This document shows, one piece after another, positions 4,149-58,041 of a DNA stretch of 64,000 nt. The DNA is from Candidatus Aenigmatarchaeota archaeon (GTDB lineage: Archaea; Aenigmatarchaeota; Aenigmatarchaeia; CG10238-14; SCSR01): the NCBI GenBank assembly GCA_016181005.1, contig JACPAE010000001.1, positions 179,885-243,884 on the forward strand, in the 5' to 3' direction. The notes below the pieces were generated by a model. That model saw only the letters and a list, made by a program, of their open reading frames with translations, was not told where the DNA came from and did not search any database. A program made the translations under genes and the position numbers. Position 1 is the first letter of the stretch. Each line of letters starts with the position of its first letter.

Positions 4149-5069
4149 TTAACTCAACAGTTCCAAGCTTTTCATCCCTTTCGCATACCATTCCTTCAGT
4201 TGCTCTTCAGTATAAAGCTCATATTCCTGCGAGAGGTATCTTGCATGCCCTGTTAGCCTGTCGACAATCGGGCCAGGTACACCAGCAGATATCATCTGCG
4301 TTTTGAAATATTTCCTCAGAGAATGTGCATGGAGTTCATACCTCTTCCCGATCTTCTTGCTCACCTTCCTGAAGACATTGTGCAGAATGAACTGCAGGTT
4401 CTGGTAACTCATCTGGCTTCCATCATGCGTTGCGAATAAATGTGCATCAGGGCCGAGCTGGTGTCCGTTGTTCTTCCTGTGATCCATGTAAGACTGCAGT
4501 ACTTTCTTCGCCTCTTCCGACATGAAAGTAAGCCTTGATTTCCTTTCCTTAGCTGTCAATCCCTTCACCCTGACGGTTGCAGGCGAAGAGTTTAGGTCTA
4601 CATCAGACAATTTAAGATTTCTCAACTCACCGATTCTGAGCCCGGAAGAAGCAAGCATTAAAATTATGGTCTTTGCCCTTGAGCTGGAGTGCGACAGAAC
4701 GTTCTTCAAGTCAACTTTTGACGGCAGCGTATCCTCATGTACATTATACATCTTCATAGTCACTTTTCCCTTCAAGTCTATTCCGTTTGACAGGAAAAGC
4801 TTCTTCACCGATGCACCCCAAGCACCTACGGTCTTAGGCGCCATGTTCTGGTTCGCAAGCGCAATTACAAAATCCTTGTAAGTCTCTTCCGGGTCCAGCG
4901 ATTTCTCCCGCAACTTCTCCACAAAACCGTCAAGGTCATCAATCTTCATTGTCTTGGCAAAAAGGTTAACGCCCTTTAGATATGTCTTGGCGGTGTTGTC
5001 GCTCCTCGTTAGAAGCTTTAGCTCACCAAGCATCTTGTTCACAGAGTTGAACTTCATTAGATGTTCCAT
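4149..5069 (-). CDS. xerA: Tyrosine recombinase, XerA-like integrase family
   Basis: 306 aa with catalytic R...HxxR...Y pattern (LRIGELRNL; HAHSLRKYF; LTGHARYLSQEY). Confidence 0.75.
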   Translation of the reverse strand: MEHLMKFNSVNKMLGELKLLTRSDNTAKTYLKGVNLFAKTMKIDDLDGFVEKLREKSLDPEETYKDFVIALANQNMAPKTVGAWGASVKKLFLSNGIDLKGKVTMKMYNVHEDTLPSKVDLKNVLSHSSSRAKTIILMLASSGLRIGELRNLKLSDVDLNSSPATVRVKGLTAKERKSRLTFMSEEAKKVLQSYMDHRKNNGHQLGPDAHLFATHDGSQMSYQNLQFILHNVFRKVSKKIGKRYELHAHSLRKYFKTQMISAGVPGPIVDRLTGHARYLSQEYELYTEEQLKEWYAKGMKSLELLS

Positions 5070-5097
5070 GATACCACTATGTCAACTTAAGAATTTA

Positions 5098-5817
5098 TCA
5101 CTTCTCATTCCTGTCGCACTTGCTCCTGTACTCGCACATGTTGCACATCCAGTTCATATCGTCATTCCTCTTCGCCTCGTCTATCGGCAGGACGTCCTTT
5201 ACCAAAAGCTCGTGCAAGACTCTGAACCTTTTAATGATGTCCATGCTGTGCATTTCGTCATACGGTATTTCAAATGCCCTTGTCTTCAAGTTCTTCTTGT
5301 CTATGTAGAGTATGATTCCGTCCTTGATCCCTGTGGCATGCATGTAGAACTGCAGCTGCATAACGTGGTTCTTGTTGGCTGTATCAGCCCTTCTTATGTC
5401 CGCAACTGACTTCACCTCGATTATCATCTTCCTTCCGTCCTCAACGGCTATGACAACGTCGTCAAGCCTGCCCGAGACCATGAAATCCTTAAAGTCCTTC
5501 TTTATCGGAATCTCAGACTCGAGAAACTTTATCTTGTCCGCATTCTTCTCGTTCTTGAAGACATGCATCACAAAATCATGCAGAAGGTTGCCAACCTCGA
5601 AAATCTTCAGCCTGTCCGGGTCAGTTTCCATCGGATGCTTGTAGGAATACCAAACCTTCCTTATGCAGTTGCCGATCTCCGAAGGATAGTATCTTCCTAT
5701 CTCTTTCGGCTTCCTTTCCCTTTTGATGTGCGCCTCTATGAGCTTGTCAAAGTCTATGATGGAAACACCTACTATAATTAGAATGCGACATTCACATAAA
5801 GCTGACCAGAGCCCATT
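5098..5817 (-). CDS. Cas4-like PD-(D/E)XK nuclease with Fe-S cysteine cluster. No canonical start codon; start unresolved.
   Basis: Nuclease motif DDVVIAVEDGRKMIIEVKS. C-terminal Cys triad WMCNMCEYRSKC. The N-terminal Cys (YYPSEIGNCIRKVWY) lies upstream of the first ATG at 5629-5631. The frame is open back to the TFS stop at 5821-5823. Confidence 0.55.
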   Translation of the reverse strand, partial: NGLWSALCECRILIIVGVSIIDFDKLIEAHIKRERKPKEIGRYYPSEIGNCIRKVWYSYKHPMETDPDRLKIFEVGNLLHDFVMHVFKNEKNADKIKFLESEIPIKKDFKDFMVSGRLDDVVIAVEDGRKMIIEVKSVADIRRADTANKNHVMQLQFYMHATGIKDGIILYIDKKNLKTRAFEIPYDEMHSMDIIKRFRVLHELLVKDVLPIDEAKRNDDMNWMCNMCEYRSKCDRNEK

Positions 5818-5820
5818 TCC

Positions 5821-6144
5821 CTAACTGTATTCCCGCCATCTCCAGCTGCATTCCTTGCATTGGTAGAACCTTGTCGGCGGCTCGTCACCTCCCCTTGTCT
5901 GCTGCATCGTCCAGTATGCGTCCCTTATAACGCCGCACTTTGGGCACAGGATTTGCGTAACAGGAAACTCCTCCTTCTCATCCTCTACAACTATGACCTC
6001 CTTCTTCTCAATCTTCCTGGTGTCCGACAATTCCAGCTTTTCGTTCAACCTCGTTTTGTTTCCGCACGAGCGGCAATAAAGAAACTTTGCACTGAATTCA
6101 GTCTTCACATTCATCAGGTTCCCGCATTTGTCACAGAATTTCAT
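5821..6144 (-). CDS. tfs: Transcription factor S (TFIIS-like cleavage factor)
   Basis: 107 aa. N-terminal zinc ribbon CDKCGN...CRSCG and C-terminal CPKCG...QQTRGGDEPPT...CKECSW. Confidence 0.85.
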   Translation of the reverse strand: MKFCDKCGNLMNVKTEFSAKFLYCRSCGNKTRLNEKLELSDTRKIEKKEVIVVEDEKEEFPVTQILCPKCGVIRDAYWTMQQTRGGDEPPTRFYQCKECSWRWREYS

Positions 6145-28009: not shown

Positions 28010-30168
28010 CTAAATTTCCGGTTTAGGCACGTCCTCATTCAAGCCTTTCCTCTTCCTTATTGATTTAACTGTATCTTCAAACAAGTCCTTAGGCACCCGT
28101 TCAAATGTAGTTTCAACCAAAGAGTAGAATCCCCTGCCGCTTGTGGCCGACTTGAGCGAAGCGTCAAAACCAAATATGTCGCTGACAGGAATCTTGGCGC
28201 TGATTACGGAAGCCCCCCGTTCGTCCTTCATGTCCAGAATCTGCCCCCTCCGATTCTCAATCTCCTTTATAGCGTCACCGATAAGTTCCGTAGGAATGTC
28301 TACCCTAATAACCTGCTTCGGCTCCAATAACTGCGCGCCAGCCGCAAGCATAGCCTGCCTTATAGCCCACCTTACCGCAGGCCTTATCTGCCCCTCGCCT
28401 CTGTGCACAGGGTCTTCGTGAAGTTCCGCGTCCATCAGCTTTACTTTCAATCTCATGCATGGCTCTCTTGCCAGCGGCCCGTCTTCCATAACGTCAGTAA
28501 AAGCATCCTTGACCATCTCTATAATCTCGTTCAAATACTGGATGCCCTTTGTCATGTCTATCAAAACATTTCTGTTGTGCATCAAAAGTATGTTTCTGGC
28601 CTCGTCATAGTCCATCCCGGTTTTCTTGAATTTCTGGAAAAGCTCTATGTTCTTTCTTTTAATCTCGCCCTCGCTTGGAAGGTCGCCCGCAAGCATAGCC
28701 TGATAAATCCCATCCTCCAAAGGTTCTACTATGATGTCGAATTTGTTGTGCTTGTTCGGGGACTTGCCTTCTATTTCAGGGGATTTGTCAAACAAAGCCT
28801 CCCGGTAAACGACAATTGGCTTGGACATATCTACATCAATTCCCAAGTCCCTCAGTTTGTGCTCAACTTTTATTTCCAGATGCAGCTCTCCAAGGCCGGA
28901 AACAAGGTATTCCCCAGTCTCTTGATTAATTTTGACAACAAGCGTCGGGTCCTCCCTGCCAAGCCTCTTCAGTATGTCGACCAGCTTCGGCAGCTCCATG
29001 GGATTCTTCGGCTCGATGGACTTGGTGACAACAGGCTCGAATATGTGCTTTATTTCCTCGAAAGGCTCAATCACTTTTCCAGCGTCTGTTATGGTCTCTC
29101 CTGTGAATGCATCAGGTATGCCGACGATGCCGACAATATTTCCTGCGGTGATTTCATCGACAGGTATTCTTTGTATCCCCCTGTAAACAACTACTTGTTG
29201 CAGTTTCTGCGTTTTATGCTGAGTTATTAAATAGACGTCCTTGCCCTTGAAAATTTTTCCGGAGAATATTCTTCCTGCAGCGACAAAGCCAACATGAGGA
29301 TCCGGAACCATCTTCGTCATTATCATCGCAAGGGTTCCATCAGGATCGCATGCCAGCATGTCTTTTCCAACATCGTTGTTCAAATCACCCTTCCATATTT
29401 TCGGAATTCTGTATTTCTGCGCATCTAAAGGATTAGGCAAGTGTTTTACAATCATGTCGAGCACCACTTGGTGCATCGGGGCTTTTTTCGCAAGCTCGTC
29501 TTCTTTTCCTTGGATTGTCAAATCGATTATTTCCTTGAATGTCATTCTGGTCTTCTTCATGTAAGGGATCGATATTGCCCAGCGCCTGAAAGCTGATCCA
29601 AACGCTACTGTGCCATCCATTACATTCACAAGCCATTTCTGCTTGTACTCCTCCGGCGCGTACTTTTGGATATAAATGTTGACGTCGCGTATAACTTCCT
29701 CGAACCTTTGCATCATCTGCTCTGGAGTAAGCTTGAGTTCACGAATGAATCTGTCAACTTTGTTGACGAATAAAACTGGCTTTACATACTCTCTCAACGC
29801 TTGACGAAGAACTGTCTCTGTCTGTGGCATTATTCCTTCCACTGGATCTATAAGGACAATAGTTCCATCAACTGCTCGCATTGCGCGTGTGACATCACCT
29901 CCAAAGTCAACGTGACCCGGAGTATCTACAAGATTAATCAAGTAGTCCTTGCCGTCATATTCATGAACCATTGAAACATTAGCACCATAAACTGTGAGTT
30001 CTCTCTTTCTTTCCTCTGGATCGAACCATGTGACCATCGCTTTTCCAGCCATCTCCTCAGCAATCATGCCGGCGCCGGCCATTAAATTGTCAGTTAATGT
30101 GGTTTTTCCATGGTGTACAAACCCGTAGATATAGCGATAAACTAAATCTATTGCGAGGACGTAGCCAT
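28010..30168 (-). CDS. fusA: Elongation factor 2 (aEF-2). N-terminus disrupted: the GTP-binding P-loop is encoded upstream of the first in-frame start codon.
   Basis: The 690-aa ORF begins MAGAGMIAEE, but YIYGFVHHGKTTLTDNL (G1 motif) lies in frame upstream with no ATG/GTG/TTG. An ATG at 30166-30168 sits in the -1 frame (MATSSQ*). The C-terminal region HRGEGQIRPAVR matches the EF-2 diphthamide-site region. Confidence 0.85.
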
Positions 30169-30172
30169 GTTC

Positions 30173-30511
30173 CTAATTCTTGCCGGATCCTTCATTGTTT
30201 CTGTGATCCTTTCCGTCATTTCTTTCTTTGCTATGATTTTCACCTACATTCATTGACTTTAGATTCTGATTTAAACTCCAAACCTTATAAGAGTTGTTAA
30301 TTGTAGAATTTAACACATTCATTCTTTCCACCAAATTTAACAAAGATCTTGTAGTTCTCTCACTTCTATTTATTTTTAATTGAACTTCTCTTTTACTTAA
30401 CAATTTCTTCTTTTCGAAGAATTTTATTATATCTGAAAAGTTTACAGAACTTTTCCTTTGAAAAGGATATAATGTATAAAATATATCTAGATTTTCGCTG
30501 CTAAAGTCCAA
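30173..30511 (-). CDS. Hypothetical basic protein inserted between rps7 and fusA. Possible wHTH.
   Basis: 112-aa ORF. Its TAG stop (30173-30175) is in frame with the EF-2 N-terminal coding region. Confidence 0.4.
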   Translation of the reverse strand: MDFSSENLDIFYTLYPFQRKSSVNFSDIIKFFEKKKLLSKREVQLKINRSERTTRSLLNLVERMNVLNSTINNSYKVWSLNQNLKSMNVGENHSKERNDGKDHRNNEGSGKN

Positions 30512-39616: not shown

Positions 39617-39847
39617 TCAACCCTTTATCACGACCCTATAGTAGACAGTCTCTCCGGCAACGGCAGATTTTCTGCCTATCTTCACAACATCGCCGAGTTT
39701 CCCGCCGAGATTCTGGATGACTGGGTCGTTGGACGAAATTCTCGGTAGCTGCCTGAGCGTTATTCTGTATTTTTCCAAAAGTTCCTTTTTCTCATTGTCA
39801 TTAAGCAAGACATGCTTCGGCACCAACTCATTCTTGGTTATGTCCAT
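39617..39847 (-). CDS. rpoH: RNA polymerase subunit H
   Basis: 76 aa. GDVVKIGRKSAVAGETVYYRVV is Rpb5-like. Confidence 0.88.
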   Translation of the reverse strand: MDITKNELVPKHVLLNDNEKKELLEKYRITLRQLPRISSNDPVIQNLGGKLGDVVKIGRKSAVAGETVYYRVVIKG

Positions 39848-40140: not shown

Positions 40141-40188
40141 TTGTTGAATAATAGAATGTGGTTGTTTATAAATTTGAGATAAGAGGTA

Positions 40189-40320
40189 GAAGGACGCAGT
40201 GCAGTTCCCGTGGTCAAGCCACAGTACAAAGCACCACGCTGGAGAGTTTAACTTCCGTGTTCGGATTTCCCTACTTTTAGAGTATATGGGAACGGGTGGA
40301 ACCTCTCCGCTCTGGTCCTT
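40189..40320 (-). rRNA. rrf: 5S rRNA, standalone, with an approximately 21-nt insertion after the CCCAT segment
   Basis: Minus strand reads GGACCAGAGCGGAGAGGTTCCACCCGTTCCCAT[ATACTCTAAAAGTAGGGAAAT]CCGAACACGGAAGTTAAAC...GTACTG...GGGAACTGC...GCGTCCTTC. Universal CCGAACACGGAAGTTAA motif present, and helix I closes via GAAGGAC/GTCCTTC. Confidence 0.8.
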
Positions 40321-40390
40321 CAATAACTTTATGAGGTATTCAATGTTTTTAAACATGTAGTATAACGAATAAATGTTTTGTCATATTTCA

Positions 40391-40870: not shown

Positions 40871-41013
40871 ACATTTTACTATATGCCAAAAACATTAATA
40901 GATTCTACTTATGCAGGTGAAATCAGGGTTTTGTCGGCGTTGGAAGGTAAACACAGTCGATTATACGACTATGATACAGATCCATTGGCAGAACCTATAG
41001 GTTATGAAAAATG

Positions 41014-41124
41014 TCCCGAAGGAGAGATTTGAACTCTCAACCTCACCGTATCCGGTAGAGTGCTGATCACTAGCACAATAGTACTAGGCTACAGCGGCGC
41101 GCTCCACCATTGAGCTACTTCGGG
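41014..41124 (-). tRNA. tRNA-Tyr (GTA) with 39-nt intron at canonical 37/38 position
   Basis: CCCGAAG-TA-GCTC-AATGGTG-GAGC-G-CGCCG-CTGTAG[39 nt]A-CGGTG-AGGTT-GAGAG-TTCAAAT-CTCTC-CTTCGGG-A. C1:G72 and A73 are archaeal Tyr identity elements. Intron CTAC pairs with GTAG, consistent with a BHB. Confidence 0.8.
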
Positions 41125-56923: not shown

Positions 56924-56996
56924 GATAACACCAAATACAATGTCTGTATACTAGAAGTAATAAAGTTAATCCGAGTTCATTTCCCCAGACGTTTAA

Positions 56997-57096
56997 TGGA
57001 CCGGGAGAGATTTGAACTCTCGTCCCCCTGCTTTCTTAGATATACGGAGCAAAGTCGTATAAGACAGGTGCTCCAACCAGACTAAGCTACCGGTCC
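56997..57096 (-). tRNA. tRNA-Ile (TAT) with 25-nt intron at canonical position
   Basis: GGACCGG-TA-GCTT-AGTCTGGTTG-GAGC-A-CCTGT-CTTATA[25 nt]A-GCAGG-GGGAC-GAGAG-TTCAAAT-CTCTC-CCGGTCC-A. TATACG of exon/intron pairs with intron CGTATA. Confidence 0.7.
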
Positions 57097-58041
57097 ATGT
57101 ATTTATATCATTGTGCAATCGATTTATTAATTATGTTCGATAAGACCATCTTGATAAACAAGGTAATAAATGCCCTGCAGGACAACGGCTACGAGACTTT
57201 TGTCACTCACGGCTCTTTCGACATTGTCGCAAGGCAGGACAGGCTGATTCTGATAAAGACTCTGATGAACATAGACAGCCTTGAAGAGTCGCATGCAATG
57301 GACTTGAAAGCTGTTTCCTATTTTCTGTCAGCCCACCCTTTCATAGTTTCAATCAAAAACAACCGGGAGCATCTGAATGATGAGACAGTCTATTCAAGGT
57401 TCGACGTGCCTGTCGTCACGCCCAAATTAATGAGGGTAATGCTAGAAGACGACGAATTGGTAGTCTCGCACTCTTCAAAGGGAAGGCACACGCAGGAAAT
57501 CAACACTTTTACCTTGAAGGAGAAAAGGAAGGAATTGGGCTATACCTTGCAAGTTCTTGCAAAGCAGATCGGGATTTCCAAGAAGGCGATGTACGAGATT
57601 GAAAAGAAGAGGGTGAATCCGCAGAGAGAGAATGCACATGCATTAGAGCGGCTGTTGGGAACAGAGCTGGCATTGCCATATGAGATGAAATTTGAAGAGC
57701 CTACCTATATCAGGCCAAAAACAGTTTTCCAGAAGATTGTCAGCAGGGAGTTCGCAAGGCTGGGAATAGACAATTCAACTGTCAGGTCAGCGCCCTTCGA
57801 AATTATCGGAAGGGAAAGTTTCTCTATTATCACCAATTTGTCAACAACACCTTCAGAGATTAAAAAGGAGATTGAAGAAGTGAGGGGTCTGGCAAATGTG
57901 TTCTCGTCAAAGACAGTTCTTATTTCCAAGAGATATGTGAGGACTTGTGTCGAGGGCATACCTGTCGTCTCGGAGCAGGAACTGTCAGAGTTGCAGTCGT
58001 CGAAAGAGCTGTCCGAAATTATAGATGAAAGGACTTACTAA
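57097..58041 (+). CDS. COG1395-like archaeal transcriptional regulator with XRE-type HTH
   Basis: 314 aa. HTH LGYTLQVLAKQIGISKKAMYEIEKKR. True start is probably the internal MFDKTILINK. Confidence 0.55.
   Translation: MYLYHCAIDLLIMFDKTILINKVINALQDNGYETFVTHGSFDIVARQDRLILIKTLMNIDSLEESHAMDLKAVSYFLSAHPFIVSIKNNREHLNDETVYSRFDVPVVTPKLMRVMLEDDELVVSHSSKGRHTQEINTFTLKEKRKELGYTLQVLAKQIGISKKAMYEIEKKRVNPQRENAHALERLLGTELALPYEMKFEEPTYIRPKTVFQKIVSREFARLGIDNSTVRSAPFEIIGRESFSIITNLSTTPSEIKKEIEEVRGLANVFSSKTVLISKRYVRTCVEGIPVVSEQELSELQSSKELSEIIDERTY

Follow-up and report, generated by a model that had tools for sequence, protein, structure and literature searches.

A Cas4-family nuclease gene of Candidatus Aenigmarchaeota with a probable near-cognate AUC start codon

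Introduction

The gene pcnB is initiated, like infC, at a near-cognate AUH codon. In bacterial infC, which encodes IF3, the start codon is AUU (PMC4705826). In both genes the AUH start is conserved across species in one gene and preceded by a Shine-Dalgarno (SD) motif, and weak or regulated initiation is deliberate. A gene of comparable layout is described here from a 64-kb stretch of a Candidatus Aenigmarchaeota (DPANN) genome (the whole stretch of DNA analysed is referred to as the window). It is located on the minus strand, encodes a Cas4-like PD-(D/E)XK nuclease and most likely represents one more rare near-cognate start like the AUU of infC, set apart by being archaeal, fixed in a clade and systematically mis-annotated. 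By analogy, weak initiation may be deliberate in the nuclease gene as well. Unlike infC, the nuclease gene belongs to a system with archaeal aIF1/aIF2 and not IF3, its codon is AUC and not AUU, its product is a nuclease with no obvious autoregulatory loop, and it is known from sequence alone.

A second comparison is offered by the alternative GUG and UUG starts of archaea and bacteria, in which one fixed position is occupied by different start codons in different lineages, as it is here by ATG, TTG, ATC and ATA. Archaea are generally credited with AUG, GUG and UUG only, and discrimination by aIF1 against AUU has been demonstrated in vitro. AUG starts are generally favoured by purifying selection (PMC5622118). 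In ribosome profiling of Haloferax volcanii, near-cognate codons made up about 30% of the putative alternative starts (PMC7261190), so archaeal ribosomes can engage such codons. Those sites are unvalidated alternative ones, set aside by the authors (PMC7261190), whereas the nuclease ATC is fixed in evolution and is the only start open to a conserved gene. The literature searched, which largely left out subscription journals, contained no report of an archaeal AUC start. As far as sequence comparison reaches, the gene would provide a clean natural, evolution-supported example of a fixed AUC start in Archaea and a concrete test case for start-codon fidelity, and its re-annotation corrects an error recurring across the whole clade.

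Among described proteins, the product resembles Cas4 SSO0001 from Sulfolobus solfataricus (PDB 4IC1), its only relative of solved structure: both are PD-(D/E)XK nucleases with a single cysteine in the N-terminal part and three in the C-terminal part.

Results

Extent of the nuclease gene

The nuclease gene is very probably an intact, normal gene of 220 codons, predicted to be initiated at a near-cognate AUC (5760-5758) that is led by an SD motif (Table 1). In the sequence, this ATC is aligned with the orthologous ATG, no alternative start is available, constraint sets in at codon 1, and SD and promoter-like motifs are conserved upstream.

The minus-strand frame contains no stop between the TAG stop codon of tfs, the gene of transcription factor S (TFS), at 5823-5821 and the first ATG at 5631-5629, and no ATG, GTG or TTG occurs in frame in this interval. 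The start-less extension of 63 codons is the longest among the 73 open reading frames (ORFs) of the window, for which the next-longest ones are 42, 33 and 30 (EF-2) codons and the majority are below 10 codons; ATC and ATA were not accepted as starts by the ORF lister used. The same two codons are outside the start set generally accepted by standard gene callers, which would explain the mis-annotation. The 177-amino-acid (aa) NCBI protein (P0006) matches exactly the product from the ATG at 5631, and the residues IIDFDKLIEAHIKRERKPKEIGRYYPSEIGNCIRKVWYSY are encoded at 5760-5641, i.e. upstream of this ATG. Judged from the alignments below, the public annotation most likely drops the first 43 residues of the protein, an iron-sulfur ligand included.

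The protein was matched by PF01930 (Cas_Cas4) with 26.3 bits (cut-off 22.7) and by PF12705 with 28.3 bits (cut-off 22). The matches to Pfam Cas_Cas4 and TIGR00372 begin at residue 31-32 of the ATC-started protein and so cover Cys32, the predicted first ligand of the cluster. The alignment with 4IC1 spans residues 7-171 (E = 2.4e-7) and includes YPSEIGNCIRKVWY against YVTDLVRCPRRVRY; in it, Cys32 is paired with the Cys of ..LVRCPRRVRY.. with high posterior probability, and this cysteine is conserved in all homologues shown. A preliminary description of the window had reported both the frame without a canonical start and a conserved N-terminus, with the first cluster cysteine, upstream of the ATG; the former is borne out by ORF listing and translation, and the latter by the Pfam and TIGR00372 matches and by the 4IC1 alignment.

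Start codon in related loci

Loci from species-representative genomes (26) and from metagenomes (41) were fetched and compared in register, and three further close relatives (L068, L069 and L070) were reached via protein records. Homologues of 219-220 aa begin with MIDFDKLI... About 45 distant loci (<=58% identity) start with ATG-ATH-GAY-TTY or with an ATG a few codons further upstream, and all distant relatives starting at the aligned codon do so with ATG (60+ loci compared). The aligned codon is ATC (ATC-ATA-GAC-TTT) in the window as well as in 14 close relatives with 70-83% aa identity. The tally of the close clade at this codon is ATC in 14 loci, ATA in one (L008), ATG in two (L068 and L069) and TTG in one (L070). 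The upstream block of L068 and L070 is as in the ATC loci, and the upstream region of L069 is more diverged; L068, which bears ATG, shares 93% identity with L029 and L031, both of which bear ATC. In a neighbour-joining tree, ATG is ancestral and ATC arises once, at the base of the clade, with ATG (L068), TTG and ATA nested within it. All states at this position are initiators in translation table 11, and none is a Val, Leu (CTN) or Thr codon. The occurrence of only start-competent codons, without the Val, Leu (CTN) or Thr codons expected of an ordinary hydrophobic site, supports the aligned position as the initiation site. A non-canonical start had been among the earlier suggestions and is upheld in kind, the codon being the ATC at 5760-5758 rather than an ATT or ATA beside the tfs stop.

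A sequencing or assembly error at a true ATG, which had also been suggested, would involve a single base (C for G). Its probability, like that of a pseudogene, is close to nil, because ATC is shared with 14 other loci (70-83% aa identity), drawn from separate public assemblies and metagenomes, in each of which purifying selection acts on an intact ORF.

Variable sites were counted by codon position in 13 close-clade sequences. The counts were 14/6/41 (of 43) for codons 1-43 and 94/55/172 (of 177) for codons 44-220, i.e. the same pattern, and the 72 nt upstream of codon 1 had no codon periodicity and contained frame-changing indels. Indels between the SD motif and the ATC shift the upstream frame among relatives. 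Coding constraint begins at codon 1. In L001, L002, L008 and L029 an in-frame stop lies just 4 codons before the aligned codon, and the interval between the upstream stop and the aligned codon is free of canonical starts in 13 of 15 loci.

Initiation at the ATG at 5631, as in the NCBI record (177 aa), would leave the conserved stretch upstream as an untranslated remnant. This ATG is the first canonical start and is chosen by gene callers here and in several related genomes, but its use is highly improbable: codons 1-43 show codon periodicity and strong purifying selection and encode the first Fe-S cysteine aligned to 4IC1, no SD motif precedes the ATG, and the first canonical start is found in the relatives at shifting positions (codons 9, 11, 35, 43 and 63). 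Owing to this wandering, the public gene calls in the close clade range from 177 to 251 aa, the shorter ones (177-188 aa) being without one Fe-S ligand. Orthologues starting at an equivalent of the ATG at 5629-5631 had been envisaged; instead, the 219-220 aa orthologues begin at codon 1.

Of the Ile codons in these genes, ATC is used least (17%), but at codon 1 it is nearly fixed. All 16 loci have ATA at codon 2, in contrast to most other conserved Ile columns, in which two or three of ATA, ATT and ATC are found. The fixation of ATC and ATA at codons 1 and 2 points to constraint at the nucleotide level, as expected around an initiation site.

Relation to the TAG stop codon of tfs

The TAG at 5823-5821 is in frame with the nuclease and no stop intervenes, so that the N-terminus could be thought to arise by read-through or recoding of this codon, or by reinitiation coupled to tfs, with a TFS-nuclease fusion or a coupled protein as the product. 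The preliminary description, which placed the conserved segment at zero intergenic distance from the TAG, had put forward all three. The distance was in error, as conserved coding begins 60 nt past the TAG, at the ATC. The 20 codons behind the TAG (GNGLWSALCECRILIIVGVS, 5820-5761) lack conservation at the protein level and hold the promoter-like and SD-like motifs; in relatives this stretch shows indels and is frame-shifted or contains stops, and in-frame stops are found 4-10 codons before the ATC. In most relatives a gene other than tfs lies upstream, and the promoter-like block is kept nonetheless. The TFS reading frame of orthologues is closed at the same residue by TGA (L001) or TAA (L006). 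TAG closes 18 of the 73 ORFs of the window and no tRNA with a CUA anticodon is present there, the anticodons of the window tRNAs being only CTG, GTA and TGA. Together, read-through, recoding and coupling have next to no probability. A check of stop usage that had been proposed was made for the window only and gave TAG 18, TAA 29 and TGA 26 (73 ORFs), consistent with TAG as an ordinary stop and not with recoding; the earlier statement that TAG acts as a real stop is thereby sustained, and the tandem TAG-AAA-TAG cited for it at the end of gltX is present in the sequence. The in-frame position of the TFS stop is a coincidence.

Upstream signals and initiation

An SD-like 4-mer of GGAGGTGA was found 1-11 nt before the start in 21 of the 55 ATG genes of the window, versus 14% of random positions. 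The GGTG-to-ATG spacing in the window is most commonly 5 nt (4 of 7 genes), which equals the GGTG-to-ATC spacing of the nuclease gene. In relatives, GGCGAT or AGTGAT stands at the place of the SD motif, inside the conserved block TAATATAGTAGGCGA.

The TATA-like element A(A/G)CTTTATCT, 41-34 nt upstream, is kept whether the upstream gene is tfs, the S-adenosylmethionine synthetase gene (L068 and L070) or the FKBP gene (L069). TATA-like hexamers in the window peak at about -29, for leaderless genes, and form a second group at about -38 to -43, before genes with an SD motif. The gene at 56923-56240 reads CTTTATTA..GGTG-5 nt-ATG, the same layout as that of the nuclease gene. A nearer candidate for the TATA box, TAATATAG, was rejected, as it is about 17 nt from the ATC, which is too close, and the transcript start would fall within the coding region; CTTTATCT at -41 was preferred because it fits the other leadered genes of the window. 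Leaderless initiation generally needs AUG, so that dependence on an SD motif fits a non-AUG start.

The following course of initiation is proposed. The TATA-like box (5801-5794) would drive a transcript whose 5' end leaves a leader of about 10-13 nt, and the leader would consist mostly of the SD motif (AGGUG, 5770-5766). By pairing of this motif with the 3' end of the 16S rRNA, the AUC, 5 nt downstream, would be set in the P site and read by the initiator Met-tRNA with a third-position mismatch, so that the protein would carry Met as its first residue. Synthesis of a potentially harmful nuclease is probably throttled by the weak codon, and low expression may be the selective reason for its retention.

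An AUG might alternatively be supplied by RNA processing, through a bulge-helix-bulge (BHB) mini-intron like those of EF-2 in this lineage (see below) or through trans-splicing, and BHB-like inserts are indeed present in the EF-2, 5S rRNA and two tRNA genes of this genome. For the nuclease gene this is exceedingly improbable. No conserved RNA secondary structure was predicted from -50 to +45 of its start in the alignment of 14 loci; in L003, L004 and L005 the preceding 60 nt contain no ATG, and an upstream ATG is not conserved among relatives; in L068 codon 1 itself is ATG, with an otherwise nearly identical upstream region. The EF-2 mini-introns do not explain the nuclease start.

Several points weigh against initiation at the AUC. 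Sulfolobus aIF1 discriminates against AUU in vitro (review PMC4705826), from which initiation at AUH should be inefficient, and an experimentally verified archaeal AUC start was not found in the literature searched. The SD-like motif is imperfect in the relatives (GGCGAT/AGTGAT, 5 of 6 matches), and the anti-SD sequence used for the comparison was the assumed general archaeal one, not the 16S rRNA 3' end of this organism. Finally, the invariant ATA of codon 2 (5757-5755) is a minor alternative as the actual initiator, with the ATC merely a spacer. All 16 close-clade loci have it, its spacing of 8 nt from GGTG is workable, and L008 has ATA at codons 1 and 2. Its use is nevertheless very unlikely, as the orthologous ATG and the in-clade ATG and TTG variants are at codon 1 and not at codon 2, the ATG-bearing relatives have an ordinary I/L/F residue at codon 2, and the 5-nt spacing of codon 1 is the commonest one of the window.

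Start codons elsewhere in the window and lineage

Eight other ORFs of the window with long start-less extensions were compared with Pfam; in six the domain begins after the canonical start, and two had no match. For neighbouring genes (tfs, xer, S7, S12, EF-1a and others), about 45 starts of orthologues have an ATG at the aligned position or no more than about 3 codons away from it. A scan for SD motifs followed by ATH was too noisy for use. A genome-wide habit of ATH starts is unsupported in this sample of eight ORFs and about 45 orthologue starts. An ATA start of RpoH (39856), the only suggestive case, was likewise rejected, being better explained by the ATG at 39847, which gives MDITKNELVPKH, with the N-terminal length typical of archaeal RpoH.

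The initiator Met of EF-2 (MAKKEMTER) is aligned with an ATA codon in the window (30232-30234, minus) and in L074, L076 and L077. This codon is located 5-6 nt after GGTGA (window) or GGAGGTGA (L074, L076 and L077), and an in-frame TGA lies 3 codons upstream of it in L074 and L076. In all four loci an ATG is found five codons downstream of the ATA, and in the window and L077 a GTG is found 3 codons upstream of it, inside the SD motif. This ATA may be a second AUH start in the lineage, for which it is weak evidence because the ATG five codons downstream could serve. More broadly, AUH (AUC/AUA) initiation might be a trait of this Aenigmarchaeota lineage through relaxed or re-tuned discrimination (by aIF1 or the initiator tRNA), with even the essential EF-2 using ATA behind a strong SD motif and the nuclease AUC kept as a fidelity-dependent expression switch, as is the AUU of infC; such a trait is considered unlikely.

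Protein family and neighbourhood

The nuclease core (GRLDD..IEVK and QLQFY) was read from the sequence, and the four-cysteine set of Cas4 is complete, with Cys32 and the CX2CX5C motif WMCNMCEYRSKC. In contrast to CRISPR Cas4, with SSO0001 as the comparison, the protein scores 55.1 bits to TIGR00372, under the equivalog cut-off of 65, no CRISPR array adjoins its gene, and the conserved neighbour is a XerA-like recombinase. No repeat array was found in the 64-kb window, in which cas genes were not systematically searched for. The nuclease is a stand-alone Cas4-family protein, outside the CRISPR-associated Cas4 defined by the TIGR00372 equivalog.

The nuclease gene and the XerA-like gene (4149-5760, minus) have the same orientation with a short gap (28 nt in the window) in most close relatives. 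The pairing is also present in L068 and L070 and was found in 15+ loci by tblastn, and the two genes may form a conserved two-gene unit.

Predicted mini-introns in the EF-2 gene

The EF-2 gene had been taken as a second instance in which a conserved coding segment follows a TAG in frame without an initiator. It is instead an interrupted reading frame. The frame (28010-30082 by first ATG; 28010-30243, minus) is broken by a 32-nt insert at 30151-30120, which sits inside the codon of the P-loop His. With the insert removed, ..ACG TCC TCG CA is joined to T GTA CAC CAT GGA.. and gives IRNMATSSHVHHGKTTLTDN, the sequence of uninterrupted 730-aa relatives, P0126 and P0128 being identical over this stretch. 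In the minimum-free-energy fold, the region has a 4-bp helix (CUCG/CGGG) with a 5' 3-nt bulge CAA, a 3' unpaired UU(U) and an inner 5-bp helix, which agrees with the published definition of the BHB motif (PMC5829648). When cleavage after the second bulge nucleotide was applied by hand, exactly the frame-restoring junctions were obtained. By this folding, the insert is a predicted 32-nt BHB mini-intron. The two cases of coding sequence behind a TAG in the window have unrelated causes, and neither is a change of the genetic code.

For the relatives, insert boundaries were set by hand from the sequences and four regions were folded. L074 (~1100-1140) has a 35-nt insert at the same site as the window, with compensatory changes and an unrelated loop, and L071 and L073 (~1125-1160) have a 33-nt insert 12 nt downstream of that site. 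Five inserts (31, 14, 14, 31 and 15 nt) are present in the first ~110 codons of EF-2 in L076:1075-1560 (GCA_053537075.1 JAIYGB010000009.1), three of which are shared by L077:385-800. Each insert has the same geometry, and its excision restores the conserved protein exactly.

The nearest described case is the crenarchaeal cbf5 pre-mRNA, which carries BHB introns (PMC2738675). These are like the EF-2 inserts in being short inserts in a protein-coding gene with a helix, a 3-nt bulge, a 4-bp helix and a 3-nt bulge. The EF-2 inserts differ from them in gene and phylum (Aenigmarchaeota), with introns of 14-35 nt and up to five per gene. In the literature searched, crenarchaeal cbf5 was the only archaeal protein-coding gene with BHB introns, and such introns were not reported there for EF-2 or for any protein-coding gene of DPANN archaea. 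The EF-2 mini-introns are a more novel lead in the window than the nuclease start.

Two other Aenigmarchaeota EF-2 homologues (P0131 and P0200; 1213-1259 aa) contain LAGLIDADG/intein domains (PF14528 and PF14890), so EF-2 in Aenigmarchaeota hosts inteins besides mini-introns. An ORF of 112 aa (30173-30511, minus) lies between the S7 gene and EF-2, overlaps the 5' end of EF-2 by about 70 nt in another frame and had no Pfam or NCBIfam match. In L071 and L076 a gene for a LAGLIDADG-domain protein is located upstream of EF-2, in the place of this ORF.

Other features of the window

The coordinates of the nuclease gene, its upstream signals and its neighbours are collected in Table 1.

Table 1. Features at and around the nuclease gene, in positions of the window
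Feature	Position	Strand	Basis or remark
XerA-like tyrosine recombinase	4149..5069	-	Conserved downstream neighbour, 28 nt downstream of the nuclease gene
Cas4-like PD-(D/E)XK nuclease, full coding sequence	5098..5760	-	220 codons and TGA stop; translation, Pfam, 219-220 aa orthologues
C-terminal CX2CX5C (WMCNMCEYRSKC), other three cluster cysteines	5116..5145	-	Read from sequence and translation
First canonical start ATG, internal Met44 rather than initiator	5629..5631	-	Codon periodicity upstream of Met44
Cys32 codon TGC, predicted first Fe-S ligand	5665..5667	-	Upstream of first ATG; aligned to 4IC1
Codon 2, ATA, minor alternative initiator	5755..5757	-	Invariant in 16 of 16 close-clade loci
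ATC, proposed initiation codon	5758..5760	-	Aligned with orthologous ATG of MIDFDKL
SD-like AGGTG	5766..5770	-	GGTG core ends 5 nt before ATC
TAATTATAGT, part of conserved upstream block (TAATATAGTAGGCGA in relatives), probably transcript-start region or leader	5771..5780	-	Alignment of 14 loci
TATA-box-like CTTTATGT (CTTTATCT in relatives)	5794..5801	-	41-34 nt before ATC; near invariant in 14 loci
GGAAAT motif, about 60 nt before start	5815..5820	-	In most close relatives, also where the upstream gene is not tfs
tfs (transcription factor S), genuine TAG stop at 5821-5823	5821..6144	-	TIGR01384 83.5 bits, over cut-off

Inserts were also seen in RNA genes. The 5S rRNA gene (40186-40323, minus) is 138 nt long against a 120-nt model and has an insert of about 20 nt in loop C, UUCCCAU/AUACUCUAAAAGUAGGGAAA/UCCGAAC (insert between the strokes), with a possible UCCC/GGGA helix and 3-nt bulges, arranged as in the EF-2 inserts. 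Its excision restores the consensus CCCAU-UCC-GAAC, and the insert may be a BHB mini-intron. The genes of tRNA-Tyr (GTA) and tRNA-Ser (TGA), at 41013-41124 and 56996-57097 (minus), have introns of 39 nt and 25 nt, respectively; both were missed by ARAGORN with default settings and found by Rfam and ARAGORN -i. A doubtful intron-containing tRNA-Gln was called at 90-194.

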